A stretch of DNA of 32,000 nucleotides from Nitrosococcus oceani ATCC 19707 (GTDB lineage Bacteria; Pseudomonadota; Gammaproteobacteria; Nitrosococcales; Nitrosococcaceae). The stretch spans positions 1,320,001 to 1,352,000 of the forward strand of contig NC_007484.1 in NCBI RefSeq assembly GCF_000012805.1, written 5' to 3'. Below are positions 16,220 through 32,000 of this stretch, piece by piece (the first letter of the stretch is position 1; each line of letters begins with the position of its first letter). The notes under the pieces were generated by a model. The model was given only the letters and a program-made list of their open reading frames with translations. It searched no databases and was not told where the DNA came from. Made by a program: the position numbers and the translations under genes.

Positions 16220-16253
16220 GCGAGGAAACGGTTTGTGATAAAATGCAAGCTAG

Positions 16254-16279: not shown

Positions 16280-16319
16280 AGCAACTTCAGATGAGCTTGT
16301 CGGACAATCTGGAAACACC

Positions 16320-17226: not shown

Positions 17227-17694
17227 ATGAAAATTGCAGCCTTAAAAAATCAATGGATTATGGTATTGATGATCGCTGGGTTGGGACTCAGCGTTAAAGC
17301 GACGGCCCATGATCAAATCGGCACCTTGGGTGTTGAAGGCAATGCTACCGATTATTATCAGATTATCTGCTCTACGGATGCGGGCGGGGTATCTGATTTT
17401 CTTGAGGTCCAAATATATGATGCCACCGTGGAGCAGGGTGGTGGTAAAATGAGCGCGGTAATACTAAGAGAACCGGTTGCCAGTACGGCCTCTGATCCCG
17501 TTAGGGCGGATGAGTTTTTTAACCACGATAAAAATCCTGGCCCCCCGGCTTTTGTTGGAGGAGGCGATGGAGTTTATAAGGTTATGGTACATAAACTCAA
17601 AAATGGTCCCAAAAATTATCTTCTGTCGTATCATTGCAAAAGCAGCGTTGGTCTTCATACGGGCACGTCCATTCTCCTTTTGCAAGATCAGTAA
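17227..17694 (+). CDS. Small secreted protein of unknown family; predicted mature N-terminus is His
   Basis: SD GGAGAGGAAAG lies upstream. Signal peptide ..GLGLSVKATA|HDQIGTLG. The mature protein is about 128 aa with two Cys (IICSTD, YHCKSS). I recognise no family. Confidence 0.65.
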   Translation: MKIAALKNQWIMVLMIAGLGLSVKATAHDQIGTLGVEGNATDYYQIICSTDAGGVSDFLEVQIYDATVEQGGGKMSAVILREPVASTASDPVRADEFFNHDKNPGPPAFVGGGDGVYKVMVHKLKNGPKNYLLSYHCKSSVGLHTGTSILLLQDQ

Positions 17695-17826
17695 TCGCGC
17701 CCGTTTTATTTTTTCGATAGTCTCCCTAAAAGTCTCCCAGGGTTTCTTCCGAGGAAAGTCCTGGGGGGCATCATGGGTATTTAATTCTGGTAGGATAACG
17801 CCCGCTTATTTAAAGTACACAAGGCC

Positions 17827-18345
17827 ATGAATAAACCGAGATTAGTGTTGTTTTATTTACTATTGGTAGCTATTCCCGCCGTACCAACGGCTATGGCTGC
17901 CGAGATTGGCCAACAGGCGCCTAACTGCTTATTGAAGCCCTTTGAGAAAGAAGATCAGGTGTTTCTTCAGCAATGGCAAGGAAAGGTGGTTTATGTGGAT
18001 TTTTGGGCTTCTTGGTGCCCGCCTTGCCTTAAATCTTTTCCCTTTTTAAATGATCTGCATCAGCGTTTTAGCGATCAAGGGCTACATATTGTGGGCATCA
18101 ATGTGGACGAGAAGTTAAGTGACGCCCAAGACTTTTTAGCGAGAGTGCCCGCTCACTTTGATGTTGTGGTTGATCCAGATCAGCAGTGTGCCCGGTCATT
18201 TGATATTCAAGCAATGCCTTCTTCTTTCTTGATTGACCAAAAGGGCGTGATTCGCCATACCCACTTAGGATTTCGCTCGGGGGATACGCAAGAGCTAGAG
18301 GCGTGGACGCAAAAACTTTTACAAGAAAAAACGGCTAATCCTTAA
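17827..18345 (+). CDS. Periplasmic TlpA/ResA-like thiol:disulfide oxidoreductase (thioredoxin fold)
   Basis: Signal or anchor sequence MNKPRLVLFYLLLVAIPAVPTAMA. Redoxin motif VVYVDFWASWCPPCLKSFPFL (CxxC). Typical redoxin-type (AhpC/TSA-like) thioredoxin-fold layout. Confidence 0.88.
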   Translation: MNKPRLVLFYLLLVAIPAVPTAMAAEIGQQAPNCLLKPFEKEDQVFLQQWQGKVVYVDFWASWCPPCLKSFPFLNDLHQRFSDQGLHIVGINVDEKLSDAQDFLARVPAHFDVVVDPDQQCARSFDIQAMPSSFLIDQKGVIRHTHLGFRSGDTQELEAWTQKLLQEKTANP

Positions 18346-18468
18346 TTTTACGCGTTGTTTACCGTTTAGTTTCCCCTCCCTTTTTTAGCATATGATTGCT
18401 TAATCAATACGCTTTGCGAAGCGCTACAACGCGCTTCGGCGTGTGTTAGATTTAAGGAGGATAGAGAT

Positions 18469-18726
18469 ATGATAAAAGATCGCCAACCTATAATAAGAAG
18501 ACGAAGAAAAACAATAAACACCTTGTTATTGCTACTATTCTTTGTGCTGCTAAACCTAGCAGGTTGCGCGCCGGTAGCGCCATGGGAACGGGGTAACCTG
18601 GCTAAACCCCAGATGGTGCCGGACCCCTATCCCATGCAGAGTGGCTTGCGTTCCCATAGTTACCGGGGCCGAGAAGCAGCTATCGGCGGCGATTCTGCGG
18701 AAGGGGGAGGATGTGGCTGCTATTAA
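18469..18726 (+). CDS. DUF4266 family lipoprotein
   Basis: SD AAGGAGG lies 8 nt upstream. Lipobox LNLAG|C. The conserved PWERGNLAKPQM segment and the C-terminal GGGCGCY tail are as I recall for DUF4266. The 3' end overlaps the following OMP gene. Confidence 0.85.
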   Translation: MIKDRQPIIRRRRKTINTLLLLLFFVLLNLAGCAPVAPWERGNLAKPQMVPDPYPMQSGLRSHSYRGREAAIGGDSAEGGGCGCY

Positions 18727-21262
18727 GCCAAAGCCTAACGCATCTTCTCCCAAGTGCCGGGCCAGCTCTTCATTATTGGCATTAACTTCTGCCGCGCTGG
18801 CCCTGCCCGGCTTGATGCCCTTACCGTCCCACGCCGCCTTCGAGGGGGGGGAATTCGATTTCCAATATGGCCGTTATCAAGAAGGTGGCGGCACTAAGAG
18901 TCAATTCCGAGATAAGGATAATGACATTCAGGTGGATAGTCTGCAGGCTTCTGGAGAAATCGACCTTTCTGATCGTTTGACTTTCCGCGCTAATTTTATT
19001 CAGGACACCTGGGTGGGGGCGACCCCCATTACCACGGCTCCCGCAGCAGCTATCAGATTTAACCCCAATGCCCAAACCGGGGCCTCAGCTTTTACTGATC
19101 TCAAAGGGGGTATTGTGGATTATGACACCCGTACCGGGGAAGGGCAGGCAACTATTCCGAATACCTTTGACACGGTAACCACCAATGAAACGGTGCATGT
19201 AATGGCTGAAGCCTCACCGGAAACCCGCAAGCAGGGAGATTTCCGGATGGGCTATGAATGGGATGAAGCGGCGCTGAATCTGGGGGGCGGTATTTCCTTG
19301 GAGGATGATTATGATTCCCGCTATGTTAGCCTAGGAGGCCGCTGGGATTTCAACCAGAAACTCACCACCCTGACAGGAGGCGTGAGCTATACGGATAGCA
19401 CTATCGATGTCCGCCGTTTCCGCTTCAGGGCCACTTCGGTTCCGGTTGATGCGGAAGGTGGGATAAACCCGGATTTTCCCGACTGGTCGGTGCGGCTCCA
19501 TGATGGGCGGACGGATATCGGAGCGAGTCTGGGCCTGACTCAAGTGCTGGATAAAAACTCGACCTTCCGAGCTAGTTTTGGTTATAACCACAATTCAGGT
19601 TTTCTCTCCAACCCGTATAAGGAAGTCACTTTTTTAACCCCCCTGGATACCCCAGGGAAAGCATGGCTATTCACCCGTTACGACAAACGCCCTGAAGAGC
19701 GGAATCAGTTCACCTGGAGCGCGGGCTATACTCGTTATCTTGCGAGGCTGGATGCTGGTTTGCATTTCAATTACAATTTTTTTCATGATGACTGGGGGAT
19801 CAACGCCCATACCTTTGACGCTTCCTGGGGGCAGCCTGTGGGAGGAGGGTGGATCATTACCCCCCGGGTCAGATATTACAGTCAAGGTGCCGCAGACTTC
19901 TATAGTCCCTTCTTTATTGCCAGCCAGGAGCCCCTTTCATTAGCGGAGATTTTACCTAATCAGAGCCAACTGCCTACCCCGGAGCATTTCTCCAGTGATC
20001 ATAGACTATCTGCTTTTGGGGCCCTGAGCGGTGGGGTGACAGTGAGCAAACAGTTTGCCAAAGGGGTCACTTTGGAGGCAGGATTTGAATATTATACCCA
20101 CGCTGGTTCTCTGAAGCTGGGAGGAGGAGGGACCGGTGATTTTGCCGATTTCAATTATTTTCTGGCTAACGCACTGCTGAAGGTGGATTTATCCGCTCTC
20201 ACTTATTCTGGGGGGGGGCATGATCATGCCGGTGGACATAACGGGCACAGCGATTTTGCCCCTGCCGGGGTAATGTTTAGCCATATGCTGGGGACAGCCG
20301 GCGAATTCATGGTGGGATACCGCTATCAGTATAGCCGCGAAGGCGGCGATATGCTCCATGGCACCCAGGCCATTGATGATCTTACTATTGTCAATAACGC
20401 CTGCCGCGATCGACCCTGTCAGCTAACCTCGGCGGTCATGAATATGCATATGCATATGCTTAATCTTATGTATGCGCCCACCGATTGGCTGAATCTGATG
20501 CTAATGCCCATGTTTATGGATATGAATATGGATTTGCGGAAGCTTGAAGGGGCGCCGCCTATTGATCCCGAGGCCGTGGGCGGACACTTCCATGCGGCGG
20601 ATAGCGGAGGACACGAGACCGGCGGTGTGGGCGATACCCAGCTATTCGCGCTGGTCAAATTGTTTGCGTCGCCTCAACATCATCTCCATTTGGGTTTAGG
20701 CGTCAGCGCGCCGACAGGGGATGTGGGTATTGAGGTTGAAGGTCAAGAGGTTAATGAGAGCAGCCCGGATTTTGGCAAACCCTTATTCATTCACTATGGG
20801 ATGCAGTTGGGAAGCGGTACCTGGGATTTCTTGCCTAACCTGACTTATACGGGTTCGATGGATCGCTGGTCTTGGGGTGGCCAACTGAGTGGTACCGTTC
20901 GCCTGGAAAGCGAAAACTCTTCCGGTTTTGCCTTTGGTGATATTTTTCAGGCCACTGCTTGGGGAGGCTATAGCCTATTCAAATGGCTGTCCGCCTCGGT
21001 TCGGGGCATTTATACTACCCAGGGAACGATTAGGAACCAATTCAACGGGCCGGACCCCCAGTCGGCGCCGGTGGACTTTCCAGAGAACTATGGTGGGCAT
21101 TTCTGGGATGTGGGTTTTGGCCTCAATGCTTCTACCTTAGGTGGCGGTCTGAAAGGCAATCGGCTAAGTATCGAATGGGTGCAGCCGGTCAGGAACGATG
21201 TCAATGGCTTTCAGCTGGAGCGGGAAGGGTCGCTTTTTGTCACTTGGGGTTTAGGATTTTAA
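18713..21262 (+). CDS. Outer-membrane protein: DUF3570 domain fused to a His/Met-rich MetA-pathway-like (annotated transporter) beta-barrel
   Basis: Likely GTG start at 18713 (the ORF track extends to 18641). Signal peptide ..LMPLPSHA|AFEGG. The N-terminal half has DUF3570-like features (..SSDHRLSAFGALSGG..). A linker GGGHDHAGGHNGH begins at about nt 20219. The C-terminal half has FAPAGVM.SHM, NMHMHMLNLMYAPTDWLNLMLMPMFMDMNM, GVGDTQ, APTGD, MQLGSGTWD, and ends ..TWGLGF, a terminal aromatic typical of an OMP beta-signal. Confidence 0.8.
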   Translation: MAAIKPKPNASSPKCRASSSLLALTSAALALPGLMPLPSHAAFEGGEFDFQYGRYQEGGGTKSQFRDKDNDIQVDSLQASGEIDLSDRLTFRANFIQDTWVGATPITTAPAAAIRFNPNAQTGASAFTDLKGGIVDYDTRTGEGQATIPNTFDTVTTNETVHVMAEASPETRKQGDFRMGYEWDEAALNLGGGISLEDDYDSRYVSLGGRWDFNQKLTTLTGGVSYTDSTIDVRRFRFRATSVPVDAEGGINPDFPDWSVRLHDGRTDIGASLGLTQVLDKNSTFRASFGYNHNSGFLSNPYKEVTFLTPLDTPGKAWLFTRYDKRPEERNQFTWSAGYTRYLARLDAGLHFNYNFFHDDWGINAHTFDASWGQPVGGGWIITPRVRYYSQGAADFYSPFFIASQEPLSLAEILPNQSQLPTPEHFSSDHRLSAFGALSGGVTVSKQFAKGVTLEAGFEYYTHAGSLKLGGGGTGDFADFNYFLANALLKVDLSALTYSGGGHDHAGGHNGHSDFAPAGVMFSHMLGTAGEFMVGYRYQYSREGGDMLHGTQAIDDLTIVNNACRDRPCQLTSAVMNMHMHMLNLMYAPTDWLNLMLMPMFMDMNMDLRKLEGAPPIDPEAVGGHFHAADSGGHETGGVGDTQLFALVKLFASPQHHLHLGLGVSAPTGDVGIEVEGQEVNESSPDFGKPLFIHYGMQLGSGTWDFLPNLTYTGSMDRWSWGGQLSGTVRLESENSSGFAFGDIFQATAWGGYSLFKWLSASVRGIYTTQGTIRNQFNGPDPQSAPVDFPENYGGHFWDVGFGLNASTLGGGLKGNRLSIEWVQPVRNDVNGFQLEREGSLFVTWGLGF

Positions 21263-21339
21263 TCGAGTATAGGGTATTTCTCTAGCCTAGGGTTTGGGTT
21301 TTCCGGTGGATAAGCTTTTTTTAGGGTTAAGAGAGTAGC

Positions 21340-22308
21340 ATGAAGCTTTACCGGGAAGCCTTCAAGGCGATGGGTACGCCCTGTGAAATTCAGCTCTATG
21401 CCAAGACTAAGGTTCAAGCTCAACGGGCCGCGGGACTTATTATCGCCGATGTGCGCCGGTTGGAAGCTCGCTATTCCCGCTACCGCACTGATAGTTTTCT
21501 CTCCGATATCAACCGGGTGGCCATGGCGGGTGGGCGTATTTCGGTAGACAAAGAAACAGAAGGATTGCTCAATTATGCAGCTACCTGTTATGGGCAAAGT
21601 AAAGGATTATTTGATATTACTTCCGGTATTTTACGGCGCGCTTGGGATTTTAAATCAGGCGAGCTGCCGAGCAGGGTGCAAGTACAGGAACTGCTGGACA
21701 AAATTGGCTGGGAAAAACTGCGCTGGGCGCCGCCGGTATTAGAATTTCCCATAGCTGGAATGGAGATTGACTTTGGAGGTATCGTCAAGGAATATGCCGC
21801 CGACCGGGCGGCTTCGCTGAGCTTACAGGCAGGAGTTCGGCGAGGCCTAGTAAACTTAGGCGGTGATATCAAAGTGATTGGTCCTCGCCCGGACGGTGAG
21901 CCTTGGCGGATTGGTATCCGCCATCCTGGACATAAAGAAGCCGCGATGGGAATGCTGCTGCTACATAAAGGCGCGATTGCTAGTAGTGGTGACTATGAGC
22001 GCTGCATTGTATTAGATGGCGTTCGTTACGGCCATGTCCTCAATCCTCAGACGGGTTGGCCGGTACGGCACTTGGCATCGGTGACCGTAATCAGTGATTT
22101 ATGTGTGGTAGCAGGAAGCGCTTCTACTATTGCCATGCTAAAAGAGGCTAATGGTTCAGCCTGGTTGCAGAATTTGGGATTACCTCATTTCTGGGTGAAC
22201 ATGGAAGGTGAAACCGGTGGTTCCCTAGAGGAAGGCTCCATTGAAGCTGTTGCTATGGTTCAAAACAGCGAGCGCCAGGCGGCAATCACGGTACTCAACG
22301 AATATTAA
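21340..22308 (+). CDS. apbE: ApbE-family FAD:protein FMN transferase (no signal peptide)
   Basis: 322 aa. Begins MKLYREAFKAMGTPCEIQLY (the ApbE xMGT motif sits at the very N-terminus). Later motifs GGIVKEYAADRA, NLGGDI, ASSGDYER. An in-frame TAA at 21328-21330 precludes any upstream extension. Confidence 0.88.
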   Translation: MKLYREAFKAMGTPCEIQLYAKTKVQAQRAAGLIIADVRRLEARYSRYRTDSFLSDINRVAMAGGRISVDKETEGLLNYAATCYGQSKGLFDITSGILRRAWDFKSGELPSRVQVQELLDKIGWEKLRWAPPVLEFPIAGMEIDFGGIVKEYAADRAASLSLQAGVRRGLVNLGGDIKVIGPRPDGEPWRIGIRHPGHKEAAMGMLLLHKGAIASSGDYERCIVLDGVRYGHVLNPQTGWPVRHLASVTVISDLCVVAGSASTIAMLKEANGSAWLQNLGLPHFWVNMEGETGGSLEEGSIEAVAMVQNSERQAAITVLNEY

Positions 22309-22310
22309 CA

Positions 22311-22325
22311 AAGGCGCCACGCCTT
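22311..22325 (+). terminator. Weak hairpin after apbE (possible partial terminator)
   Basis: AAGGCG-cca-CGCCTT lies 3 nt after the stop. The T tract is interrupted (GCTGTGATTTTC). The 3-nt loop is tight. Confidence 0.25.
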
Positions 22326-22402
22326 GCTGTGATTTTCATGAAAACCGAATGCCGCTGCTTGTCCACTCAAATCTATCCTGTACATGCAAGGATAAAGAAA
22401 AT

Positions 22403-23956
22403 ATGAATGACCTCTCCCTAAATTTCCCGGGACGAGCGGGACTCTACTTTATCGTCTTTTTGACTGGCGCCGCAGTCATGATCATAGAAATTTTGGGAAC
22501 TCGGATGATTGCCCCTTTCTATGGGGCGAGCCTTTACGTTTGGTCATCCCTGATCTCGGTCACTATGATAGCGCTGGCCTTGGGTTATTTTATCGGGGGC
22601 CGCTGGGCTGATCGGGCCGAACGGACCGGCCTGTCATTGATCATTGCACTCGCAGCCTTACTCACTCTTCTTATTCCCTGGTTAACTCGTCCAGTGTTGC
22701 TGGCGACCGATCCGTTGGGCCTGCGGGCAGGGGCTTTGGTGAGTGCGCTGGTGCTGTTTTCGCCAAGCTTGACCTTTCTGGGAATGGTGGGGCCTTTCGC
22801 TGTTAAGTTATCCACTGCAAATCTGGCGGGGGTTGGCGCCAGCGCCGGTTCGATTTATGGGATAAGCACCCTTGGCAGTGTCGTGGGAACGTTACTCCTG
22901 GGATTCTATTTATTTCCTATTGTAGGTTCCCGCGAGATTTTTATTGTGCTTGGCCTTGTCCTGTTCCTATTGGCCATAGCCGTAGCCTTTTATGAGAGAA
23001 AACGCCTGAGGTTTACCTCGGCCCTACTGCCCATTGACTTCTTGGCAGCGATAGGAATTGGGCTATTACCACAAATTGCCGGTGCAAATCGCACGGACTC
23101 CAATAAGGAGTCTTTTCAAGTCCAATTCGAGCGGGAAAGCTTATATGGTTGGGTACGGGTTATTGATCAACCGGCGCGGGATCTCCGCCTGCTCACCGCT
23201 GATGCTTCTACCATTGGAGCGGCCAGCATTACCCATGGTCAAAACCGGCTTGCCTACCAAAATATCGTACCGCTCATTCCGGCTTTAGCACCTCCTATGA
23301 AGCGCGCTTTGCTGATTGGCCAGGGTGCCGGCCATATGGCTATGGCTTTGGAAGATCGCTATGGGATTGTCATGGATACGCTGGAGATAGACCCGGCCGT
23401 TGCGGAGGCGGCAATCCGTTATTTTGGCTTTAGTCCCACTGGTAAGGCCATAATTGGAGATGCCCGTTATGAAATTCGGCGTTTAAAAGGTCCTTATGAT
23501 TTAATTATCCATGATTGTTTTACCGGGGGTGCGGAGCCTGTCCATTTACTGACTATTGAAACTTTGACACGGCTACGCTCCCTGCTTTCCGAGCAGGGCA
23601 TACTCGCCCTTAATTTCGTATCTTTCTCGGAGAACGGGAAAAATACTGCATTGGCCTCTATCGCCAAGACCCTGGCGCACGCTTTTCCCCATCAAATGGT
23701 TTTTGCTTCCGAGCCCGGCAAGGATTTTAACGATTTCATTTTCCTTGCCGCTAATCGCCCTATTGATTTGGATGTCAATACACTCACGCTTGAGAAAATT
23801 TCTTGGTTAAAACAACGCCTTATGATAGTGGATAAAACCCAAGGAATCCTGTTAACGGATAATTTTAATCCACTTGAGCATTTGCAGGTACGTAAAGCAA
23901 AACACTATAGAAATATTTTAGTCAATTGGTTAGGCACGGATATTTTAGTGCGGTGA
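22403..23956 (+). CDS. Membrane-fused spermidine-synthase-like protein (polytopic N-domain plus class I SAM-fold domain)
   Basis: I prefer the ATG at 22403 (MNDLSLNFPGRAGLYFIVFLTGAAVMIIEILGTRMIAPFYGAS..), since the ORF-track extension to 22241 overlaps apbE. About 7-8 hydrophobic helices. The C-terminal domain has LLIGQGAGHMA, LEIDPAV and DLIIHDCF. The stop overlaps the wzm start (GTGA). Confidence 0.8.
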   Translation: MNDLSLNFPGRAGLYFIVFLTGAAVMIIEILGTRMIAPFYGASLYVWSSLISVTMIALALGYFIGGRWADRAERTGLSLIIALAALLTLLIPWLTRPVLLATDPLGLRAGALVSALVLFSPSLTFLGMVGPFAVKLSTANLAGVGASAGSIYGISTLGSVVGTLLLGFYLFPIVGSREIFIVLGLVLFLLAIAVAFYERKRLRFTSALLPIDFLAAIGIGLLPQIAGANRTDSNKESFQVQFERESLYGWVRVIDQPARDLRLLTADASTIGAASITHGQNRLAYQNIVPLIPALAPPMKRALLIGQGAGHMAMALEDRYGIVMDTLEIDPAVAEAAIRYFGFSPTGKAIIGDARYEIRRLKGPYDLIIHDCFTGGAEPVHLLTIETLTRLRSLLSEQGILALNFVSFSENGKNTALASIAKTLAHAFPHQMVFASEPGKDFNDFIFLAANRPIDLDVNTLTLEKISWLKQRLMIVDKTQGILLTDNFNPLEHLQVRKAKHYRNILVNWLGTDILVR

Positions 23957-24780
23957 AGTCATCGTCTGGATTCTCCATTTCTCCCATCGCGGCACTCAAG
24001 GAATTCATCAAAACCCGTGAATTGATTGCCCAGCTTGTTTGGAGCGAAGTGGTAGGGCGTTACCGGGGTTCCTTTGCGGGATTCTTGTGGTCTTTTCTTA
24101 ATCCTTTATTCTCCCTGGCAATGTATACTTTTGTCTTTGGGGTGGTTTTTAAGGCACGCTGGGGATTGTCGGCAGAAAATACTTTTGATTTTTCCATGGT
24201 GTTATTTACGGGTTTAATTGTTCATGGGTTAGTGTCTGAAACTATCAATCGAGCGCCCTATTTAATTCTTAGTAATCCCAGTTATGTTAAGCAAGTTGTG
24301 TTTCCCCTGGAGGTATTGCCGGTCGTCGCTTTGGGGTCGAGTTTATTTCATGCCGCGATTAGTTTTTTATTGTTAATTGTTATTTGGAGCATCGCCCATG
24401 GGAGCATAGCATTAGCCGTTGCTTTTATTCCCTTGCTAATATTGCCCTTGAGTTTAATTACTGTTGGAGTGAGTTGGTTTATGGCAGCGGCTACTGTGTA
24501 TTTTCGGGATCTGGGTCAACTGGTGACTTTTATCAGCAGTGGGCTGCTCTTTTTCTCGCCAATTTTTTACCCTGTAAGCTCAGTTCCAGAATCTTTTCGG
24601 ATCTTTTTAGAACTTAATCCGCTTACTTATATCATTGAACAGGTACGTGCCACGCTTATTAGTGGAGAAATTCCAGAGCTAAAGGGTTATGTAGTCTATT
24701 TTTTAGTTTCTGCTATCGTTGCCTGGGCGGGTTATGCCTGGTTCCAGAAAACACGCGCCGGTTTTGCCGATGTAATATAA
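23953..24780 (+). CDS. wzm: ABC-2 type polysaccharide export permease (Wzm/TagG-like)
   Basis: GTG at 23953 overlaps the upstream TGA. N-terminal signature RELIAQLVWSEVVGRYRGSFAGFLWSFLNPL, followed by six hydrophobic helices. The start could instead be the TTG at 23926. Confidence 0.85.
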   Translation: MKSSSGFSISPIAALKEFIKTRELIAQLVWSEVVGRYRGSFAGFLWSFLNPLFSLAMYTFVFGVVFKARWGLSAENTFDFSMVLFTGLIVHGLVSETINRAPYLILSNPSYVKQVVFPLEVLPVVALGSSLFHAAISFLLLIVIWSIAHGSIALAVAFIPLLILPLSLITVGVSWFMAAATVYFRDLGQLVTFISSGLLFFSPIFYPVSSVPESFRIFLELNPLTYIIEQVRATLISGEIPELKGYVVYFLVSAIVAWAGYAWFQKTRAGFADVI

Positions 24781-26030
24781 TGTTAACTTCCATGGGAGAA
24801 ACCGATCCGGAAATTTTGATTAATGTGGATAATGTTAGCAAGTGCTATCATTTATACCACCGCCCTCAGGATCGACTGTGGCAGTCTTTTTTTCGAGGGC
24901 GTAAAAAATTTCACCGTGAATTTTGGGCATTACTCAATATTTCCTTGCAGGTCCGGCGGCATGAGGCTGTAGCTATCATCGGGCGCAATGGCGCGGGAAA
25001 AAGCACCTTGCTACAGATCATTGCCGGCACTTTAGCGCCTACCTCAGGAAAAATCGCTGTTCAAGGCAGAGTTGCGGCCTTGCTCCAATTGGGAAGCGGT
25101 TTTAACCCTGAATTCACGGGGCGGGAAAATGTGTTTCTAAACGGCGCTATCCTTGGGTTTAGCCGCGCTGAAATTAGCTGCCGCTTTGAAGCAATAACAG
25201 CCTTTGCGGAGATCGGTAATTTTATTGATCAACCGGTTAAAACCTATTCTTCCGGGATGATCATGCGGCTTGCTTTCGCTGTTTCTACTTGTCTTGAACC
25301 GGAAGTGCTGATCATCGATGAGGCTTTAGCGGTAGGGGACGCAGCATTCCAATTTAAATGCAGGGATCGGCTTCAGGGTCTGATTACTCAAGGAACTACA
25401 TTATTACTGGTTTCCCATGATATGAGCGCTGTTAAATCGTTTTGTCATCGTGCAGTCTATATTGAAGATGGCCAAAAAAAGGCGGAGGGTGAACCGGAAC
25501 ACATCTCTGAGCGTTATTTTATGGATGTGCGTGCCCGGCAGATGAGTCGCGTACAACAAGAAAAAAAAGGCAGGGATACCATCGTCTGTGAAAAGTCCCA
25601 TGGTTATGGCACTAGTGAAGGAGAAATTGAGTCCGCTGTTTTTGTAGCAACAAGAGGAAGTGCCGCTCTTTTTAATTATGGTGATACTATTGAATTAAAG
25701 GTTACCTGCCAGTTTGCGTCTCACATAGAGTTTCCATGCCTATCGGTAGTACTCCAGGCAACTAATCTAGTGGGTATAGGTGGGCGCTGGTTCCGTATTA
25801 ACCCGCTTTCTTCGGAATTCGATGCTGCTGCTATTACTTTAAAAATAAAGTTTCCCGCAAAATTTAATGATGGAAAATATTTTATTACCCTAAGATTGGA
25901 AGATCGTAAAGATCAGAAACAATATTTTATTTTACATAAAATTCCAGGCGCATTAACATTTGATATTTTGCCGCGTACTAATAACGATTTATTAGGGTTT
26001 AATGATATAAAACTTACCTGTGAGCAGTAA
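24780..26030 (+). CDS. wzt: Polysaccharide export ABC ATPase with a C-terminal substrate-binding domain (Wzt/TagH-like)
   Basis: The ATG overlaps the wzm stop by 1 nt. Walker A GRNGAGKSTL, signature YSSGMIMRLAFA, Walker B VLIIDEAL. About 150 extra C-terminal residues (from about nt 25572) are beta-rich, as in the Wzt_C jelly-roll domain. Confidence 0.9.
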   Translation: MLTSMGETDPEILINVDNVSKCYHLYHRPQDRLWQSFFRGRKKFHREFWALLNISLQVRRHEAVAIIGRNGAGKSTLLQIIAGTLAPTSGKIAVQGRVAALLQLGSGFNPEFTGRENVFLNGAILGFSRAEISCRFEAITAFAEIGNFIDQPVKTYSSGMIMRLAFAVSTCLEPEVLIIDEALAVGDAAFQFKCRDRLQGLITQGTTLLLVSHDMSAVKSFCHRAVYIEDGQKKAEGEPEHISERYFMDVRARQMSRVQQEKKGRDTIVCEKSHGYGTSEGEIESAVFVATRGSAALFNYGDTIELKVTCQFASHIEFPCLSVVLQATNLVGIGGRWFRINPLSSEFDAAAITLKIKFPAKFNDGKYFITLRLEDRKDQKQYFILHKIPGALTFDILPRTNNDLLGFNDIKLTCEQ

Positions 26031-26033
26031 GAA

Positions 26034-26663
26034 ATGATTATTTCTCACAAATATCAATTTATTTTTATAAAGAACGGAAAAACAGCAGGAACAAGTATTG
26101 AAGTATTCCTTTCCAAGTTTTGCGGTTCTTTTGATATCGTTACCCCCATTTATCCCGCGGTGGAATCCCATTTTCCTCGTAATTACGCGGGTTTTTATAA
26201 CCGCATGACGAGCGCGGAGATTCGGGAGAAAATAGGTAAGAAAACCTGGAAAAATTATTTTAAATTTTGTGTAGAGCGTAACCCTTGGGATAAAGCTATC
26301 TCCTATTATTATATGGCTAAATGCAGAACTGGTGGGAATCTCTCTCTTGACAAATTTCTCGATGGCTGTGAATTTCCCATCAATTTTCCCCGCTATACAG
26401 AACCAGGAAATAGTTCAAAAATTATTGTAGATAAAATTATTGACTTTAATAACCTTATTGAAGGCTTAGGAGAAGTTTTCGGAAGGTTAGGATTACCTTT
26501 TGATGGTTCGCTTGGGGTTTATGCTAAATCAGAATATCGGACTGATCGACGGCCTTATCAAGAAGTTTTGACGGCTTCCCAGGCACGTAAAATTCAAGAG
26601 ATCTTTGCGGTGGAGATTGATTTGCATGGTTATCATTTTCAGAAAGTAAAATTAATCGCATGA
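26034..26663 (+). CDS. Family-2 type sulfotransferase (paralog 1)
   Basis: 5'-PSB-like loop FIKNGKTAGTSIEVFL and 3'-PB-like motif VERNPWDKAISYYY. 209 aa. Separated from wzt by a 3-nt gap. Confidence 0.8.
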   Translation: MIISHKYQFIFIKNGKTAGTSIEVFLSKFCGSFDIVTPIYPAVESHFPRNYAGFYNRMTSAEIREKIGKKTWKNYFKFCVERNPWDKAISYYYMAKCRTGGNLSLDKFLDGCEFPINFPRYTEPGNSSKIIVDKIIDFNNLIEGLGEVFGRLGLPFDGSLGVYAKSEYRTDRRPYQEVLTASQARKIQEIFAVEIDLHGYHFQKVKLIA

Positions 26664-27280
26664 TAGGAATACGTCACCAATTCATTTTTGTGCATATTCC
26701 AAAGACCGCTGGCAATGCCATGCAGAATATTCTAAGCACCTACTCGGAAGATACTATCGTTGTCAGCGGCAATAAGGATGGTGTTCATCGATTTGGATTA
26801 TATAGTCTCTACGGCACCACTAAGCACTCGACTTTGACTGATTATTTTTTTGCACTAGGGCCAGAATCATTTTGGCCAAAACGAAAATTTACCTGTGTCC
26901 GTAATCCTTGGGATCGTGCTATCTCTTTTTATTTTTCACCACATAATAAAAATTATTCCTGGAATAGAAATAAATTTATCCGCATGTTGGATAAAATTTA
27001 TCCAATGACTACTTTTTTGCGCCTACCTGCCCATGTGGCGAGTACAAAACCTGATCAAAACATTGATCTTATTATCCGCTACGAAGATTTACACAAAGGT
27101 TTTTCTAAGTTATGCGATATCCTAGGGATTTCAAGGAGAAGTCTTCCTGTTCTCAATAAGGGGAATCGGAAGTCCTATTTTGAATATTACGATTCCGATC
27201 TTATCCAAATAGTAGCGGAGCGTTTCCGGGAAGATATTGAGAATTTTGGCTATGAATTCGATTCCCCTAAGCGCTATTAA
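26660..27280 (+). CDS. Family-2 type sulfotransferase (paralog 2)
   Basis: FVHIPKTAGNAMQNIL and VRNPWDRAISFYF. ATGA overlap with paralog 1. Confidence 0.8.
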   Translation: MIGIRHQFIFVHIPKTAGNAMQNILSTYSEDTIVVSGNKDGVHRFGLYSLYGTTKHSTLTDYFFALGPESFWPKRKFTCVRNPWDRAISFYFSPHNKNYSWNRNKFIRMLDKIYPMTTFLRLPAHVASTKPDQNIDLIIRYEDLHKGFSKLCDILGISRRSLPVLNKGNRKSYFEYYDSDLIQIVAERFREDIENFGYEFDSPKRY

Positions 27281-27282
27281 GA

Positions 27283-27990
27283 ATGAAGATCGTCATCGTG
27301 CATATTCCTAAGGCGGCGGGTACTTCACTCAAGGAAGCTATTTCCGCTAAAGTAGGTATCGATAATATTCATTTTGATTATGATCGCCCCCTCGCCAGGG
27401 GTGATTTATCAAGGAATGCTCGTTGCTTGGCCTCAAGTATTACCGTTAAGCCGAGAGAAGAATCAATTATTTTCGGTCATTTCCTAGTGGGAAAATATGC
27501 TAGATTTAACGGCTGTTATTTTAGGCGCCGTAAAAAAATATTTTACGTGACTTTTCTCAGAGAACCTTTACAAAGAGCAATATCGCATTTTTTTTTCTGG
27601 AAAAGAACGGCTGTTCAAGGACATCGGGTTTGGGAGCGTTTTACTCAAGAGAATTGGAGCTTAGAAAGATTCCTGCTATCTAGGGAACATACTAATTTCC
27701 AGGCCAAATTCCTTTGGCGATTTCCGTTGAATCAGTTTGACTTTATCGGTTTAACAGAATATTTCCATGATAGCGTAGAAATGCTGGGACGCGTTTCTCC
27801 ACTGCTAAGCGGCTTGCCAATAAAAACAGAAAACGGTAATCCAAAAAATTCTATTGGAGCGAGTTATAGCATTGATTCCTGTCTGGCATCCGAGTTTATG
27901 CGCCGCAATGAATTGGATTACGATTTATATAATCAAGGAGTTAAACGTTTTCTTATACAAAAACACAAACTTTTAAAGGCAAAGGGATGA
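27283..27990 (+). CDS. Family-2 type sulfotransferase (paralog 3, more divergent)
   Basis: IVHIPKAAGTSLKEAI and LREPLQRAISHFFF. 2-nt gap upstream and ATGA overlap downstream. Confidence 0.75.
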   Translation: MKIVIVHIPKAAGTSLKEAISAKVGIDNIHFDYDRPLARGDLSRNARCLASSITVKPREESIIFGHFLVGKYARFNGCYFRRRKKIFYVTFLREPLQRAISHFFFWKRTAVQGHRVWERFTQENWSLERFLLSREHTNFQAKFLWRFPLNQFDFIGLTEYFHDSVEMLGRVSPLLSGLPIKTENGNPKNSIGASYSIDSCLASEFMRRNELDYDLYNQGVKRFLIQKHKLLKAKG

Positions 27991-30900
27991 CTATGACGGA
28001 CAGCTCATCGGTCGTATTTTTGCTAGGAGTGCCCCGTTCAGGTACAACTTTACTTTCTTGGTTGCTTAATCAGCACCGGAGTATTTACTGCCCGCCGGAG
28101 CCGTGGCTGCTGCTGGGACTAGAATCGCTTGGACAGGTTCCTGCTGATCACGTTGCCGATCCGCCTCTTTTGTCTAGCGCGGTTGCTGAGTTTTTAGGAG
28201 CTAGACGATTACAGAGTCTCAAGCGGGCAGCCTTATCTATTTATCAGCACGCCTTGGAGGAAGCGGGAAAATCTGTTTTTATTGATAAAACCCCTCGTAA
28301 CTATCATGCCCTTGATTTTGTGCAGGAGTTTCTGCCGGAAGGAAAAATTATTTTTCTCGTACGCAATCCCCTTGATGTGGCGGCTTCTTTTAAAACTTCT
28401 TGGTCGGTGGAACTTCCAAAAATTATCTCTAATCAGGAAGATACTCCTTTTATTTTTGACTATATTCTAGGTTTTAATAGACTGCTGGATTTTGAAGAAA
28501 ATTATCCCGTGCTTAGAGTTCGTTATGAGGACTTGGTTGTTGATCCTGATGAACAAATGGTGCGTATCTTTAAGTATCTAAAACTCCCACCGCAAGCAAT
28601 TAATAAGGATTTGGACATTCAAAAAACCTCCTATGCCAGGAGTTCTCTCGGCGATAAGAGAATTCTTGCGACGCCCTCTATTCATACGCGATCTATTGAT
28701 GCTTATAAGGGTGTTTTCAAAAAAGGGGAAATTCAAACTCTTTTGAATTCCTTGGGAGAAAAATCTTTTTTTAAATTAGGTTATGCCCAACAATATGCTG
28801 ATGCCTGTGCAGAATTCGAAATAATGCCTTGTCACGAGATCTCTTCACGGCTGCTAAAAACAGCGGAAGGATACGTGCAACGACGCCAGAGGCGTTGTTC
28901 TGACCTCCAGTCACGAGGTATTTTCGAGCAAAAAATAGAATATTTAAGTCAACAAATTGAATGCTTGAAGCAACAAAATGAAATTGCCCAGAAGCGCAAT
29001 CAGGATATTAGTAATGAATTAAAATCCGCTCAGAGGCAAAATAGCACGCTTAATAAGCAGTTAATTCTATCGAGAACAGAAAAGGAAGAATTTAAGAAGC
29101 AATTCCATTCGTTGCAAAATATGGGTTTGAAAGCGCGTTTACATGGGGATCTTGGATATATTAAAAAACGCTTAAAACAGAAAATCAAAGATGGCCTTTG
29201 GCACGTAGTACAAGGGCCGCCCGCACCGCCATTACCAAGAATAACGATAGTTACGCCGGTGCTTAATGGCGCTCAATTTATTGAAGCGACGCTGCGCTCG
29301 GTGCTGGTACAAGAATATCCCGCACTGGAATTTATCATCGTTGATGGTGGTTCCACTGATGATACCTTGTCTATTATAGATAGCGTTCAAAATAGTTCTG
29401 ATTTTAAGGATAGAATTAGTTGTGTCATATCAGAGCCTGATGGCGGCATGTATGATGCTATCGCTAAGGGCTTCTCGCGGGCAACGGGTGAAATACTGGG
29501 ATACCTAAATGCTGATGATTTACTTGAAGGCGGGGCCTTAGCTGCTGTTGGCAGTTATTTCTCCCGCCATCCGAAAGTAGCCGTAATCTACCATGAGGAC
29601 ACTGTTTTGGTGAACGGGTGGAAATATCCCAACGTTCGGCAGCCAAAGGGGATAAATACGGTTGATCTGCTTAATAAGCATATTTTATTTCAGGACGGTG
29701 TTTTTTTTAGGCGGGAAGCTTACCAAACCATTGGTGGTTTACGGCGTGATTTAAAATTAGCGGGAGATTATGATCTCTGGTTGCGTTTATCGGCTCGTTT
29801 TAAATTTATCCGTAGGTCAGGGCATGTTAGTTGTTTCCGTATTCGCCGGGGGCAATTTAGCGAAAATATGGAAGCTTATAATGAAGAAATGGAACGTGCG
29901 CGCCATGATTTTTTATCCCAAGCTTCCCGCTTGCAAATACTTCGCTGGGAAATTCAAAAGAAATATCTTTTTTTCAGTAAATCTATAGAAAAAATTTCGA
30001 GGCGCCACCGCTTATTTTTCCCCCTCGATTTTAGCAATTTGCCGCCACCGCCTGTTAGTTTGTCTGGAACGGAGTATGGACAGGCATTAAGCCCCATTGA
30101 TGGCAAGTTGGCAGAGCGGTTCTTGTTTAGTACTCCAGATACTCGCTTTGGCGATAAGATGATCAATTATATCTACCTGGATACCCGTCATCTCATTGCG
30201 ATTACTTATCCGCCTATCCAGCCTGCTGAACTTGACAGATTGTATAAGCGCCATTATTCTGCGCCGCCCTCATCGATCAATAACCCAGAGAGTCCTTCGC
30301 CCTATCGTCAGTTCGAGGGTAAACGCCCCTGGGAGAAATTGCTTCTGAGGCTACCCGTGGAGCGGTGGCTTTCGTATTTTTTTTCCAAAGATCTCTGGCT
30401 AGATAATACCCTGAATGAGTTGAGTAATACGCTTCAATCTTCACAAATTAATATTCACAGCCCACTTCGAGTACTTGATACTGGTTGTTTTGAGGGCCAT
30501 TTACTCGATGGCATTGCCGCCCGGAAATCCTGGCGAGGTTATGGCCTGGAACCCAATATCCAAGCGGTGGAAATTGCTCGTGGTAAGGGGCATTGTGTTT
30601 GGCAAGGACGTGCTGAAGATGCTGTTGAGATTATTCCATATTCCTATCAGTTCGATGTCATTTTCATGGGGCAAAGTATTGAGCATACAGATGATCCGGT
30701 GCGGGTCCTGCGCCGTCTTCGTCTGCTACTTGCCCCTGGTGGCGTTCTGGTCGTGAGTACGCCTAATTTGGATTCCCGGCAAATTACCTGGTTTGGCCCA
30801 ACTTGGGCTCATTGGCATGCACCCTATCATCGCTATATTTTTTCGAGGAAGGGTTTATTCGCCCTAGCCAGACAAACAGGTTTGCATCCTGTTTGTTTCA

Positions 30901-31106
30901 AAACCTTCTCCCATTGTTACTGGACTGCCATGTCACTAATGCAGAATTTTATCGGGCTTGGAGGTAGCGTATCCCATACAGTCGATTTTGATCATCCCCT
31001 GCGTTTACGGGCGCAAAGAATTAATTTTTGGCAGCAGTTTTTTTGGAATCGTATAGGCAAAGGGGATTATTGCTTCTTTGTGATGAGGGATGAGGAAAGT
31101 GGCTAA
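27987..31106 (+). CDS. Multidomain glycan biosynthesis protein: sulfotransferase, coiled coil, GT2 glycosyltransferase, class I SAM methyltransferase
   Basis: 1039 aa. Residues about 7-270: LLGVPRSGTTLLS (PAPS 5'-PSB) and IIFLVRNPLDVAASF (3'-PB). Residues about 300-400: heptad-rich segment (EQKIEYLSQQIECLKQQNEIAQKRNQDISNELKSAQRQNSTLNKQL..). Residues about 417-640: GT2 (ITIVTPVLNGAQFIEATLRSVL..IIVDGGSTDDT..LNADD). Residues about 825-1035: methyltransferase (VLDTGCFEGHLL..LLAPGGVLVVSTPN). Confidence 0.85.
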   Translation: MTMTDSSSVVFLLGVPRSGTTLLSWLLNQHRSIYCPPEPWLLLGLESLGQVPADHVADPPLLSSAVAEFLGARRLQSLKRAALSIYQHALEEAGKSVFIDKTPRNYHALDFVQEFLPEGKIIFLVRNPLDVAASFKTSWSVELPKIISNQEDTPFIFDYILGFNRLLDFEENYPVLRVRYEDLVVDPDEQMVRIFKYLKLPPQAINKDLDIQKTSYARSSLGDKRILATPSIHTRSIDAYKGVFKKGEIQTLLNSLGEKSFFKLGYAQQYADACAEFEIMPCHEISSRLLKTAEGYVQRRQRRCSDLQSRGIFEQKIEYLSQQIECLKQQNEIAQKRNQDISNELKSAQRQNSTLNKQLILSRTEKEEFKKQFHSLQNMGLKARLHGDLGYIKKRLKQKIKDGLWHVVQGPPAPPLPRITIVTPVLNGAQFIEATLRSVLVQEYPALEFIIVDGGSTDDTLSIIDSVQNSSDFKDRISCVISEPDGGMYDAIAKGFSRATGEILGYLNADDLLEGGALAAVGSYFSRHPKVAVIYHEDTVLVNGWKYPNVRQPKGINTVDLLNKHILFQDGVFFRREAYQTIGGLRRDLKLAGDYDLWLRLSARFKFIRRSGHVSCFRIRRGQFSENMEAYNEEMERARHDFLSQASRLQILRWEIQKKYLFFSKSIEKISRRHRLFFPLDFSNLPPPPVSLSGTEYGQALSPIDGKLAERFLFSTPDTRFGDKMINYIYLDTRHLIAITYPPIQPAELDRLYKRHYSAPPSSINNPESPSPYRQFEGKRPWEKLLLRLPVERWLSYFFSKDLWLDNTLNELSNTLQSSQINIHSPLRVLDTGCFEGHLLDGIAARKSWRGYGLEPNIQAVEIARGKGHCVWQGRAEDAVEIIPYSYQFDVIFMGQSIEHTDDPVRVLRRLRLLLAPGGVLVVSTPNLDSRQITWFGPTWAHWHAPYHRYIFSRKGLFALARQTGLHPVCFKTFSHCYWTAMSLMQNFIGLGGSVSHTVDFDHPLRLRAQRINFWQQFFWNRIGKGDYCFFVMRDEESG

Positions 31107-31926
31107 TTTGAAACTTCCAACTATTAGTATTGTAACGCCGTCCCTCAATCAGGGAGAGTATGTGGAGTGGACGGTGCGATCGGTGTTTGAGCAACGTTAT
31201 CCAAACCTGGAGTATATCTTTATGGATGGTGGCTCTACTGATCAGACGCTAGATCGTATTGCCTCCTACCGTAATCGTTTTTTACATTTTGAGTCGGGGC
31301 CTGATGGAGGGCAGAGTGCAGCTATTGCTAAGGGATTTAGCATTGCCACTGGGGAGATTATGGCCTATTTAAATAGCGATGATGTGCTACTGCCCGGTAC
31401 GCTTAATTTTGTGGCCGATTATTTCCATCGTCATCCTGAAGTAGATTTTCTTTATGGCCATCGTTGCATTGTTAACGAAATAAATCAAGTTATAGGACAC
31501 TGGATTCTGCCTCGGCATAGCAGTTTTTTAATGCGGCGTTGGGATCTTATCCCGCAGGAATCTTGTTTCTGGCGTCGTCGCCTGTTTGAACAAAAAGGGA
31601 ATATCGATGCCAGTTTCCAATTTGCTATGGATTATGATTTGTTCGTACGCTATATGGACGTTGGTAATTTCAAGCGGGTAAACCGATTTCTTTCGGCCTT
31701 TCGAGTGCATAAAGATGCTAAAACCACAACCCAGCTGACGACTACCGGTTGGGCGGAAATAGAACGTGTACAACGGTCCAATCAGATGCGGTTTCCACCT
31801 TTGCTAGGTAAGCTTTTCCCTCTTTCGGTACAATTACGTTCCCTCCTTTTTATTCGAAGAGGAGAGTGCTTTCCGGGGCTTCCTCCAGGGTCGAATTTTA
31901 ACTTAAACATCCTATGGGGAGATTAA
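31090..31926 (+). CDS. GT2 family glycosyltransferase (paralog of the GT2 domain in the 1039-aa protein)
   Basis: ISIVTPSLNQGEYVEWTVRSVFEQRYPNLEYIFMDGGSTDQTLDRI and AIAKGFSIATGEIMAYLNSDD align colinearly with residues about 419-515 of the upstream protein. The start overlaps the upstream gene; 31099 (GTG) and 31108 (TTG) are alternatives. Confidence 0.85.
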   Translation: MRKVANLKLPTISIVTPSLNQGEYVEWTVRSVFEQRYPNLEYIFMDGGSTDQTLDRIASYRNRFLHFESGPDGGQSAAIAKGFSIATGEIMAYLNSDDVLLPGTLNFVADYFHRHPEVDFLYGHRCIVNEINQVIGHWILPRHSSFLMRRWDLIPQESCFWRRRLFEQKGNIDASFQFAMDYDLFVRYMDVGNFKRVNRFLSAFRVHKDAKTTTQLTTTGWAEIERVQRSNQMRFPPLLGKLFPLSVQLRSLLFIRRGECFPGLPPGSNFNLNILWGD

Positions 31927-32000
31927 GTAGATTTTGAGATAAGCTTTTCGGTAAAAAAATGAACCCATTCTTGGGAAATTTATACCGGCTTTACAGTTTG

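Follow-up and report, generated by a model that had tools for sequence, protein, structure and literature searches.

The 32,000-nucleotide window examined here, positions 1,320,001-1,352,000 of NC_007484.1 from Nitrosococcus oceani ATCC 19707 (positions below follow window numbering), carries towards its right end a gene island that probably directs the synthesis and export of a sulfated, methylated, fucose-containing glycan by an ATP-binding cassette (ABC) transporter route, a prediction of general function drawn from sequence relationships. A run of eight open reading frames (ORFs), all on the plus strand, extends from 22403 to 31926 in the ORF list for 20000-32000 and in a reading of the junctions, and the ORF listing contained no long competing ORF on the minus strand across this run. 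The island proper comprises, in order, wzm, wzt, three small sulfotransferase genes (ST1, ST2 and ST3), the gene for a 1039-aa fusion protein, a gene of glycosyltransferase family 2 (GT2a), fcl, a further GT2 gene (GT2b) and a GT4 gene (Table 1). It measures about 11 kb from wzm (23953) to GT4, with its first 8 kb inside the window and GT4 about 3.1 kb beyond it. Genes past the window were read from scaffold DS995300.1 of N. oceani AFC27 (assembly GCA_000155655.1; contig L001 below), which differs from the window at a single base over 10.9 kb (position 23037).

An earlier note on this stretch had counted nine ORFs; eight lie between 22403 and 31926, the start of the next gene being at 32104, beyond the window. 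The same note held that the locus runs off the window end, and fcl, GT2b and GT4 do follow on the extended contig. The extension past 32000 that it proposed yielded more glycosyltransferases (GT2b and GT4) and did not yield cysDN/cysC, the genes for supply of 3'-phosphoadenosine-5'-phosphosulfate (PAPS), in the N. oceani island. Every junction that it listed is present, with overlaps or gaps of no more than 3 nt: the stop of the first ORF overlaps the GTG start of wzm in a GTGA (23953-23956), wzm and wzt share 1 nt at 24780 (TAATG), a 3-nt gap separates wzt from ST1 (26030 to 26034), ST1 and ST2 meet in an ATGA at 26660, a 2-nt gap lies between ST2 and ST3 (27280 to 27283), ST3 meets the fusion gene in an ATGA at 27987, and the fusion gene overlaps GT2a by 17 nt (31090-31106). 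The gene caller takes the GTG at 23953 as the start of wzm; an alternative TTG start lies at 23926.

Table 1. Positions of the genes and domains at the N. oceani locus, with the matches on which each assignment draws
Feature	Position (window numbering)	Residues or size	Strand	Match or source
Fused MFS/spermidine-synthase-like membrane protein	22403..23956		+	NCBIfam NF037959 3e-60, no Pfam match
wzm, ABC-2 permease of glycan exporter	23953..24780		+	ABC2_membrane 4.1e-27
wzt, ATPase subunit	24780..26030		+	ABC_tran 3.4e-23; Wzt_C 2.7e-17
Wzt_C carbohydrate-binding module of Wzt	~25596-26006	273-409	+	Pfam
ST1, small cytoplasmic PAPS-type sulfotransferase (Noc_1229 orthologue)	26034..26663	209 aa	+	Sulfotransfer_2 22.6 bits
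ST2, small sulfotransferase	26660..27280	206 aa	+	Sulfotransfer_2 47.1 bits, 4.5e-12 over full model; Sulfotransfer_1 3.3e-5
ST3, small sulfotransferase	27283..27990	235 aa	+	Sulfotransfer_2 22.5 bits
Fusion, sulfotransferase head	27987..28826	1-280	+	Sulfotransfer_3 4.8e-28 (residues 10-201)
Fusion, helical spacer, candidate coiled-coil ruler	28833..29213	283-409	+	AlphaFold2 model
Fusion, GT2 (GT-A fold), probable L-fucosyltransferase, with amphipathic helix	29235..29996	417-670	+	Glycos_transf_2 1.3e-23 (residues 420-582)
Fusion, beta-rich middle and class I SAM methyltransferase	30009..31106, including stop	~675-815 and 824-1039	+	Methyltransf_23 6.9e-20 (residues 824-968)
GT2a, stand-alone GT2	31090..31926		+	Glycos_transf_2 1.3e-21
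Spacer before fcl	starts 31927; 31927..32000 in window	177 nt	+	extended contig
fcl (GDP-L-fucose synthase)	32104-33036 (window-equivalent)			extended contig L001; NF047922 497.5 bits
GT2b, third GT2	33037-33786 (window-equivalent)			extended contig L001
GT4	33958-35097 (window-equivalent)			extended contig L001

Pfam hidden Markov models (HMMs) uphold the assignment of the exporter genes as wzm and wzt. The permease and ATPase genes are adjacent within the glycan locus, as in Wzm/Wzt systems generally, and Wzt bears a carbohydrate-binding module (CBM) fused C-terminal to its nucleotide-binding domain, as in the capped subclass of these systems. In a profile search the best match of Wzt in the PDB is the full-length WzmWzt structure (8dku/7k2t; residues 14-396, E 6e-72), and among NCBIfam models the TagH/Wzt models (2e-66) stand well ahead of the NodI models (1e-28). 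None of Wzx, Wzy or Wzz is found among the 11 genes of the complete island, all of which are assigned to other families by Pfam and NCBIfam, in agreement with the earlier reading of the window.

Sulfotransferases and the fusion protein

Four sulfotransferase domains are encoded in the island, three as the small proteins ST1-ST3 and one as the head of the fusion protein, and all four pass their Pfam cutoffs, although ST1 and ST3 clear the Sulfotransfer_2 cutoff of 22 bits by only about 0.5 bit. The 5'-phosphosulfate-binding and 3'-phosphate-binding motifs of PAPS-dependent enzymes, with consensus P-K/R-x-G-T-T/S and R-x-P-x-x-x-x-x-S respectively, read KTAGTS and RNPWDKAIS in ST1, PKTAGN and RNPWDRAIS in ST2, and PKAAGTS and REPLQRAIS in ST3. 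K-x-A-G and R-x-P-x-x-x-A-I-S are invariant in an alignment of the three, and KTAGTS and ERNPWDK..S are invariant among 27 homologues of ST1. The AlphaFold2 (AF2) model of ST1 has a mean predicted local distance difference test score (pLDDT) of 88.9, and its top 50 fold matches in the PDB are all sulfotransferases or sulfotransferase-fold enzymes, with modest scores (best E 1.5e-3, TM-scores 0.4-0.56). A phmmer search of ST2 against PDB sequences returned nothing meaningful. A profile built from ST1-ST3 recovered at least 7,121 clusters of proteins some 200 aa long, among them many with recorded PF03567 matches and a source name of sulfotransferase; the ST3 orthologue of Nitrosoglobus likewise has a recorded PF03567 match. 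Small bacterial Sulfotransfer_2 proteins are not rare.

A rival view is that some of these sulfotransferase-like ORFs share the locus with the glycan genes without serving them, either because their products are inactive or because these modify something unrelated, a small molecule, for instance, or a different envelope component. The slender Pfam margins of ST1 and ST3 point in this direction, as does the absence of ST1-ST3 from most homologous loci: in our comparative set of 65 related loci, taken from a species-level genome collection, they are present only in a Methylococcales relative. Members of the ST1 family that are 58-62% identical to it occur in unrelated contexts as isolated genes with no wzm/wzt nearby (L073 7001-7609; L074 3642-4250; L075 7001-7693), adjoining polA and a LOG-family gene or lying near DegT-type aminotransferase genes, and because such close relatives occur away from wzt the substrate of ST1 may be something other than this glycan. 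Set against this are the invariance of the PAPS-binding motifs, the sulfotransferase fold of the ST1 model, and the translational coupling of the genes between wzt and the fusion gene, an arrangement shared by N. watsonii, Nitrosoglobus and one metagenome-assembled genome of the Methylococcales; mere co-location is accordingly judged improbable. The proposition that the small-sulfotransferase family is generally linked to wzt was rejected, as two distant members are orphans or lie near other sugar genes.

The 1039-aa fusion protein (27987-31106) combines a NoeE-like sulfotransferase, a helical spacer of about 125 residues, a GT2 domain resembling WrtF and a methyltransferase, and its AF2 model, built with 44 homologues, has a pLDDT of 87.9. 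The head matches the NCBIfam NoeE model (NF052394) at 1e-54 and 185.7 bits, with fusion residues 4-358 covering positions 5-369 of the 387 in the model. Its PAPS motifs are PRSGTT and RNPLDVAAS, and PRSGTT, K101, R126 and S134 are invariant or nearly so in the 44 homologues; profile matches of the head in the PDB are the CurM/OLS sulfotransferases and TPST. The spacer is modelled as three helices (283-305, 312-377 and 381-409) with lower pLDDT, as is typical for a coiled coil modelled as a monomer. Its length ranges from 94 to 203 residues among the homologues, and it is the only hypervariable stretch between domains, the other two measuring 53-62 and 62-88 residues (the latter nearly always 65-77).

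The best match of the GT2 domain in the PDB is WrtF, by profile search (3e-26), phmmer (5e-18) and Foldseek (E 1e-17, TMt 0.70). The donor-site motif of WrtF is retained as SEPDGGMYDAI, together with the equivalents of WrtF residues P11, D66, G68, Y70 and I73, and the domain is a probable L-fucosyltransferase. GT2a, which is 40% identical to the GT2 domain (E 1e-44), is its paralogue. In fold and profile searches the conserved middle region and the methyltransferase resemble the sugar methyltransferases KijD1 and TcaB9. The methyltransferase region is confidently modelled as a Rossmann domain, has many invariant residues in 830-950 and matches five further methyltransferase models. In its glycine-rich SAM-binding motif I, LDTGCFEG (residues 830-837, window ~30474-30497), Phe replaces the usual central Gly. 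Because G833, C834, F835 and G837 are nearly invariant across the 44 homologues, the substitution is a family trait and not decay.

No transmembrane segments are predicted in the island enzymes, and modification would therefore take place in the cytoplasm, where PAPS and S-adenosylmethionine (SAM) are available. The strongest amphipathic 18-mer of the fusion protein, residues 656-673, follows closely on the GT2 domain. The last helix (1003-1020) ranks below the most amphipathic segments, and on this ground a WbdD-like amphipathic anchor for the membrane at the C-terminus was rejected. In AFC27 the 1039-aa protein is misannotated as 'methionine biosynthesis protein MetW, putative', a name that goes back to the weak MetW similarity of its C-terminal methyltransferase and can now be corrected.

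Related loci, fucose genes and the boundaries of the island

The arrangement in N. oceani recurs well outside the Nitrosococcaceae. Full sulfotransferase-GT2-methyltransferase architecture is found in about 60 protein clusters, with identities to the N. oceani protein of 87% in N. watsonii, 64% in Nitrosoglobus, about 60% in Nitrosacidococcus and 44% in Rhizobium sp. AAP43, and it is found also in the Tepidisphaerales and Phycisphaerales. In nearly all of the 65 related loci wzm-wzt lies directly upstream of the full-length fusion and GT2a directly downstream (GT2a directly follows the fusion in about 30 of the related loci), and this wzm-wzt-fusion-GT2a core is shared by Methylococcales, Rhizobiales and Planctomycetota. 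In other relatives the sulfotransferase head is replaced by a heptosyltransferase-like GT9 domain (PF01075) before the same GT2-methyltransferase body, as in locus L070, or there is no head at all; the N-terminal head of the family looks modular and swappable.

The decisive evidence comes from the neighbours of these cores. The Rhizobium sp. AAP43 cluster reads gmd-fcl-GT2b-cysD-cysNC-wzm-wzt(Wzt_C)-fusion-GT2a, and the same gene set (gmd, fcl, GT2b, cysD, cysNC) accompanies the core in the Rhizobiales genome AFS018714. In betaproteobacterial loci with a headless fusion, a kinase for adenosine-5'-phosphosulfate (APS; 3e-68, 2e-68) precedes wzm and a stand-alone Sulfotransfer_1 protein (5e-40, 1.6e-10) follows wzt, and these loci also carry gmd/fcl or a gene resembling GT10 fucosyltransferases, along with several methyltransferases. 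Genes for PAPS supply and fucose recur beside wzm-wzt cores; by gene content, therefore, Wzm/Wzt export is associated across phyla with fucose, methylation and predicted sulfation, both where the sulfotransferase is fused and where it stands alone. Fcl of N. oceani is 68% identical to the fcl product of Rhizobium sp. AAP43, whose gene itself adjoins gmd. With fcl downstream, a head related to NoeE and a GT2 domain related to WrtF, the sugar in question is very probably L-fucose.

A sulfated and methylated fucose is also a Nod-factor decoration, and the NoeE-like head and the matches of Wzt to NodI models could be taken to indicate a small decorated oligosaccharide or glycolipid signal, exported in the manner of Nod factors by NodIJ, and not a polymer. 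The far better matches of Wzt to TagH/Wzt and full-length WzmWzt, and its Wzt_C module, speak against such a signal, as do the lack of nodABC-like genes and the presence of four to five glycosyltransferases and a coiled-coil protein, which suit polymer assembly. The signal is a very remote prospect.

The island is a low-GC, horizontally acquired segment. From wzm, its left edge (43.1% GC), to GT4 the GC content is 37-45% per gene and that of third codon positions (GC3) 31-42%, GT2b being the exception at 49%, and the flanks stand at 51-53%. The first ORF of the run, encoding a fusion of major facilitator superfamily (MFS) and spermidine-synthase-like parts, has 49.5% GC and 50.6% GC3, close to the backbone; its orthologues are 67-72% identical across the Methylococcales, and in Methylomicrobium and Methylomonas it stands beside a thioredoxin-DUF4266-DUF3570-ApbE series with no wzm/wzt after it. 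Because this ORF is conserved elsewhere without wzm/wzt, the island is seen to be inserted downstream of a conserved backbone cluster. The first ORF is missing from all 65 related loci, and in N. watsonii and Candidatus Nitrosoglobus terrae, where full synteny runs from the thioredoxin gene to GT4 (with another right flank in Nitrosoglobus), it is separated from wzm by a gap of 19-20 nt with no overlap. On these grounds (backbone-like GC, conservation in Methylococcales, contexts free of wzm/wzt, absence from the related loci) the ORF was rejected as a member of the glycan locus.

The domain content given in the earlier note fares well against these results. Pfam upholds its two GT2 domains and its single SAM methyltransferase domain, and its four sulfotransferase domains with PAPS motifs all pass Pfam, with motifs kept in homologues and a sulfotransferase fold for ST1. 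The membrane-fused SAM-fold protein that it placed in the locus is indeed called as a fused MFS/spermidine synthase by the HMM and is a backbone gene outside the island. Its overall conclusion, an ABC-dependent locus for a sulfated, methylated glycan, is sustained by the HMMs, the PAPS motifs, the ST1 fold and the PAPS genes of homologous loci.

Several features of the boundaries may be described in their own right. Terminator-like hairpins lie at both edges, one just after ApbE and the other about 285 nt after GT4 (L001 14293-14324). In N. oceani, the first ORF and wzm may share a transcript, since they overlap by 4 nt and a terminator-like hairpin is seen only upstream of the first ORF. A promoter scan gave 24 promoter-like matches against a shuffled expectation of 27.4, so no excess. 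The last ~350 nt of the MFS/spermidine-synthase gene (23603-23956) have 35-43% GC as compared with about 52% in the rest, and this drop may place the island's compositional boundary within the 3' end of that gene. The one base that distinguishes window and AFC27 scaffold also falls in it (position 23037, A in the window, C in the scaffold). On the right, some 0.8 kb of AT-rich non-coding DNA (L001 14009-14790, window-equivalent 35098-35879) runs from GT4 to an Alternative Complex III operon; the hairpins at L001 14293-14324 are overlapping and G+C-rich, and the same stretch has a called 38-aa ORF.

Upstream of the island, the backbone cluster occupies 17227-23956 in the order thioredoxin/AhpC-like gene, DUF4266, DUF3570 (873 aa), ApbE and MFS/spermidine synthase, and is syntenic in Nitrosococcaceae and Methylococcales; its content of ApbE, a flavin transferase, together with a periplasmic thioredoxin is suggestive of a role in redox chemistry or maturation. 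GC is low (43-47%) in a second stretch, 13001-16300, which contains an FKBP-type isomerase gene on the minus strand (14133-14810) and a 266-aa ORF with no Pfam match (15419-16219). Further left are two ORFs with no Pfam match (120-1298 and 2193-3683), DUF6384 at 1295-2215 (4.5e-129) and a PIN-PhoH fusion ATPase at 3687-5108, downstream of which lie gmk, spoT/relA, a RidA-like gene, recG and ubiA.

A proposed assembly route and the possible placement of sulfate

A sulfated, methylated, fucose-containing glycan is strongly supported as the product, because homologous cores in Rhizobiales, Betaproteobacteria and Planctomycetota carry cysD/cysNC or APS kinase, gmd/fcl and sulfotransferases. Assembly of the glycan would use a lipid carrier on the cytoplasmic side of the inner membrane, with GT4 perhaps making an adaptor on the primer and the fusion GT2 domain and GT2a (possibly also GT2b) extending the chain from GDP-L-fucose. 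The methyltransferase of the fusion would O-methylate fucose, so that methylation from SAM and sulfation from PAPS would both occur while the chain is in the cytoplasm, and the finished chain would leave via the Wzm/Wzt transporter. In the proposed scheme the coiled-coil spacer would hold the NoeE-like head away from the membrane-proximal glycosyltransferase modules, and only a chain of sufficient length would be sulfated by the head on its non-reducing terminal (methyl-)fucose; recognition of this cap by the C-terminal module of Wzt would then license export. ST1-ST3, which are specific to Nitrosococcaceae and Methylococcales, might add further sulfates to the chain or to the cap.

ABC-dependent assembly finishes the chain in the cytoplasm, where undecaprenyl diphosphate carries it, and a subset of systems caps the non-reducing end (PMC11231755). 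With a cap-reading module on Wzt and a terminator/coiled-coil/polymerase layout in the fusion protein, the sulfate and methyl groups, or some of them, may be located at the chain end and not along the polymer. By analogy with the terminator/polymerase proteins of capped O-antigen systems, whose layout the fusion matches, we tentatively propose that sulfate is, or is part of, a chain-terminating, export-licensing cap read by the CBM of Wzt.

The main rival to this proposal is a polysaccharide that bears sulfate and methyl groups from end to end, for example an O-antigen, capsule or exopolysaccharide (EPS) resembling a fucan, with all four sulfotransferases and the methyltransferase acting on every repeat, the helical region serving as a structural linker or oligomerisation element, and Wzt_C binding an internal or unrelated epitope. 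Four sulfotransferase domains exceed the needs of a single cap, and the headless loci, with several methyltransferases and a stand-alone sulfotransferase, suggest extensive decoration; sulfation of every repeat via ABC-type routes is moreover known in marine bacteria, as in the capsular polysaccharide (CPS) of Cobetia marina with its PAPS genes (PMC11766843). Such decoration sits poorly with the Wzt_C modules of characterised systems, which read non-reducing-end caps (PMC11231755), and with a sulfotransferase head that is placed exactly like the terminators and a spacer of hypervariable length. Whole-length decoration is somewhat unlikely as the full account, and it is compatible with a cap, since ST1-ST3 could decorate the chain and the head cap it.

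Along with the orphan relatives of ST1, a number of observations weigh against sulfate capping or against the broader functional prediction. The head scores far under the NoeE equivalog cutoff of 500 bits and is a homologue and not an equivalog; Fcl, a full-length match to NF047922 (497.5 bits, E 1.6e-149), falls 2.5 bits under the curated cutoff of 500; and in the fusion GT2 domain two residues of the fucose C6-pocket of WrtF are replaced, V87 by Tyr and G89 by Asn. The coiled coil was read from a monomer model and its simple heptad score is only moderate, and the differences in spacer length fall in heptad multiples at a frequency of 0.166 against 0.143 expected, which is marginal (p ~0.04). 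Genes for PAPS supply (cysDN/cysC), gmd, an initiating phosphoglycosyltransferase of the WecA/WbaP type and a ligase are absent from the N. oceani island, and a literature search did not establish PAPS supply in N. oceani. The methyltransferase could be the terminator instead of the sulfotransferase, or sulfate and methyl could both decorate every repeat. The literature contains no paper naming Noc_1228-1233 and no chemistry for any member of the locus family. The sole Nitrosococcus paper that mentions a sulfotransferase concerns a different, AFC132-specific cluster, and no paper was found that joins a sulfotransferase to chain termination in ABC systems, although an in-silico prediction of sulfotransferase terminators in the 2019 census of termination chemistries by Mann, Kimber and Whitfield is possible.

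The same ABC route could instead lead to attachment of the sulfated, methylated fucose glycan to some other lipid anchor or to a protein, such as a glycoprotein of an S-layer or outer layer, in which case it would not be a lipopolysaccharide O-antigen. The outer wall of N. oceani includes additional ordered layers, and the S-layer glycans of Geobacillus reportedly involve a methyltransferase-GT2 fusion, WsaE, working with Wzm/Wzt. Neither waaL nor any other ligase gene is present in the island, and capped ABC-dependent assembly serves several glycan classes (PMC11231755). The want of a ligase gene says little, however, O-antigen ligases being usually encoded elsewhere, and among characterised enzymes the one most closely related to the GT2 domain acts in O-antigen synthesis, with no oligosaccharyltransferase near the island, so that attachment other than to lipopolysaccharide seems unlikely.

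The class of pathway to which the island belongs is already known, and ABC-exported sulfated bacterial glycans are documented, Cobetia being an example. What is new is the conserved sulfotransferase/coiled-coil/GT2/methyltransferase protein, in which the coiled coil is predicted, its genetic association with fucose genes, PAPS genes and a Wzt that carries a CBM, and the stack of three extra sulfotransferases in Nitrosococcaceae. The genetics of bacterial glycan sulfation is poorly mapped, and a locus family that joins PAPS supply, GDP-fucose synthesis, sulfotransferases and Wzm/Wzt in one recognisable and widespread module offers a handle for finding bacterial sulfated fucose glycans. [quoted passage not shown] A head that acts as terminator would widen the chemistry of chain-length control and export proof-reading and provide a new pairing of CBM and ligand. 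For Nitrosococcus, a globally distributed marine ammonia oxidiser, such a glycan would affect surface charge, recognition by phage and grazers, and aggregation.

Comparison with characterised systems

Sulfated glycans with dedicated sulfotransferases in the glycan cluster, as in N. oceani, are exemplified by the cyanobacterial EPS synechan (xss), which differs from the N. oceani system in being Wzx/Wzy-dependent and in having no terminator/CBM logic. The capped O-antigen systems of Escherichia coli O9a and Klebsiella pneumoniae O3 (WbdD), K. pneumoniae O12 (WbbB) and O7 (ORF6), like the N. oceani island, combine Wzm with a CBM-bearing Wzt in the absence of Wzx/Wzy (PMC11231755). In all characterised members a coiled coil carries the terminator at the end distal to the glycosyltransferase modules, and the CBM of Wzt admits only capped chains (PMC11231755). 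In common with these systems, the N. oceani island encodes one large cytoplasmic protein with an N-terminal modifier, a helical spacer and C-terminal GT2 module(s), and an extra stand-alone glycosyltransferase that completes the polymerase. The head-spacer-glycosyltransferase topology is the same as that of O12 WbbB and of O7 ORF6, the latter a methyltransferase-kinase/coiled coil/two-GT2 protein (PMC11231755). The N. oceani system departs from them in having a PAPS-type sulfotransferase as its head where they have a methyltransferase, kinase or Kdo transferase, in carrying its methyltransferase at the C-terminal (polymerase) end and not the distal end, in its three further sulfotransferases after wzt, and in a coiled coil that is predicted only.

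The wb(salmo) cluster of Aeromonas salmonicida has a 216-aa sulfotransferase-domain ORF directly between wzt and a WbbB-type coiled-coil polymerase-terminator (PMC4483657), an arrangement reminiscent of that in N. oceani, from which it differs in that its terminator is a WbbB of Kdo type and its sulfotransferase the only one. No sulfate is reported in the A. salmonicida O-antigen despite this ORF (PMC4483657), a further point to be set against sulfation in N. oceani; it may reflect either a missed terminal sulfate or an unrelated role of the ORF.

With respect to fucose, the instructive parallel is WrtF, a GDP-L-fucose-dependent GT2 enzyme from the ABC-dependent O-antigen locus of Rhizobium tropici CIAT 899 (PMC12595478; PDB 9omh-9omn). 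That locus also has a CBM-bearing Wzt and fucose genes (gmd/fcl in R. tropici, fcl in the N. oceani island), and the two glycosyltransferases share the donor-site motif S-E-P-D-x-G-x-Y-D-A-I; the fusion GT2 domain is only 25-28% identical to WrtF, is fused and not stand-alone, and has the two C6-pocket changes described above. No mention of O-antigen sulfation was found in the R. tropici WrtF paper (PMC12595478). The Nod factors of Rhizobium sp. NGR234 carry a 2-O-methylfucose that NoeE sulfates at C3 (PMC5080398). The N. oceani head aligns to nearly the full NoeE model and shares with it a context of fucose synthesis and a methyltransferase; unlike NoeE, it is fused to GT2 and methyltransferase domains and encoded in a Wzm/Wzt polymer locus and not a nod cluster.

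The CPS of Cobetia marina KMM 1449, also a marine gammaproteobacterium, provides a precedent for cytoplasmic sulfation followed by ABC export (PMC11766843). It differs from the N. oceani system in its KpsMT/KpsSC group III capsule machinery, its Kdo-lipid primer and its lack of a coiled-coil fusion, and its sugars are rhamnose, mannose and glucose with no fucose. Its cluster links PAPS genes to glycan genes, as do those of the Rhizobiales relatives of the N. oceani locus.

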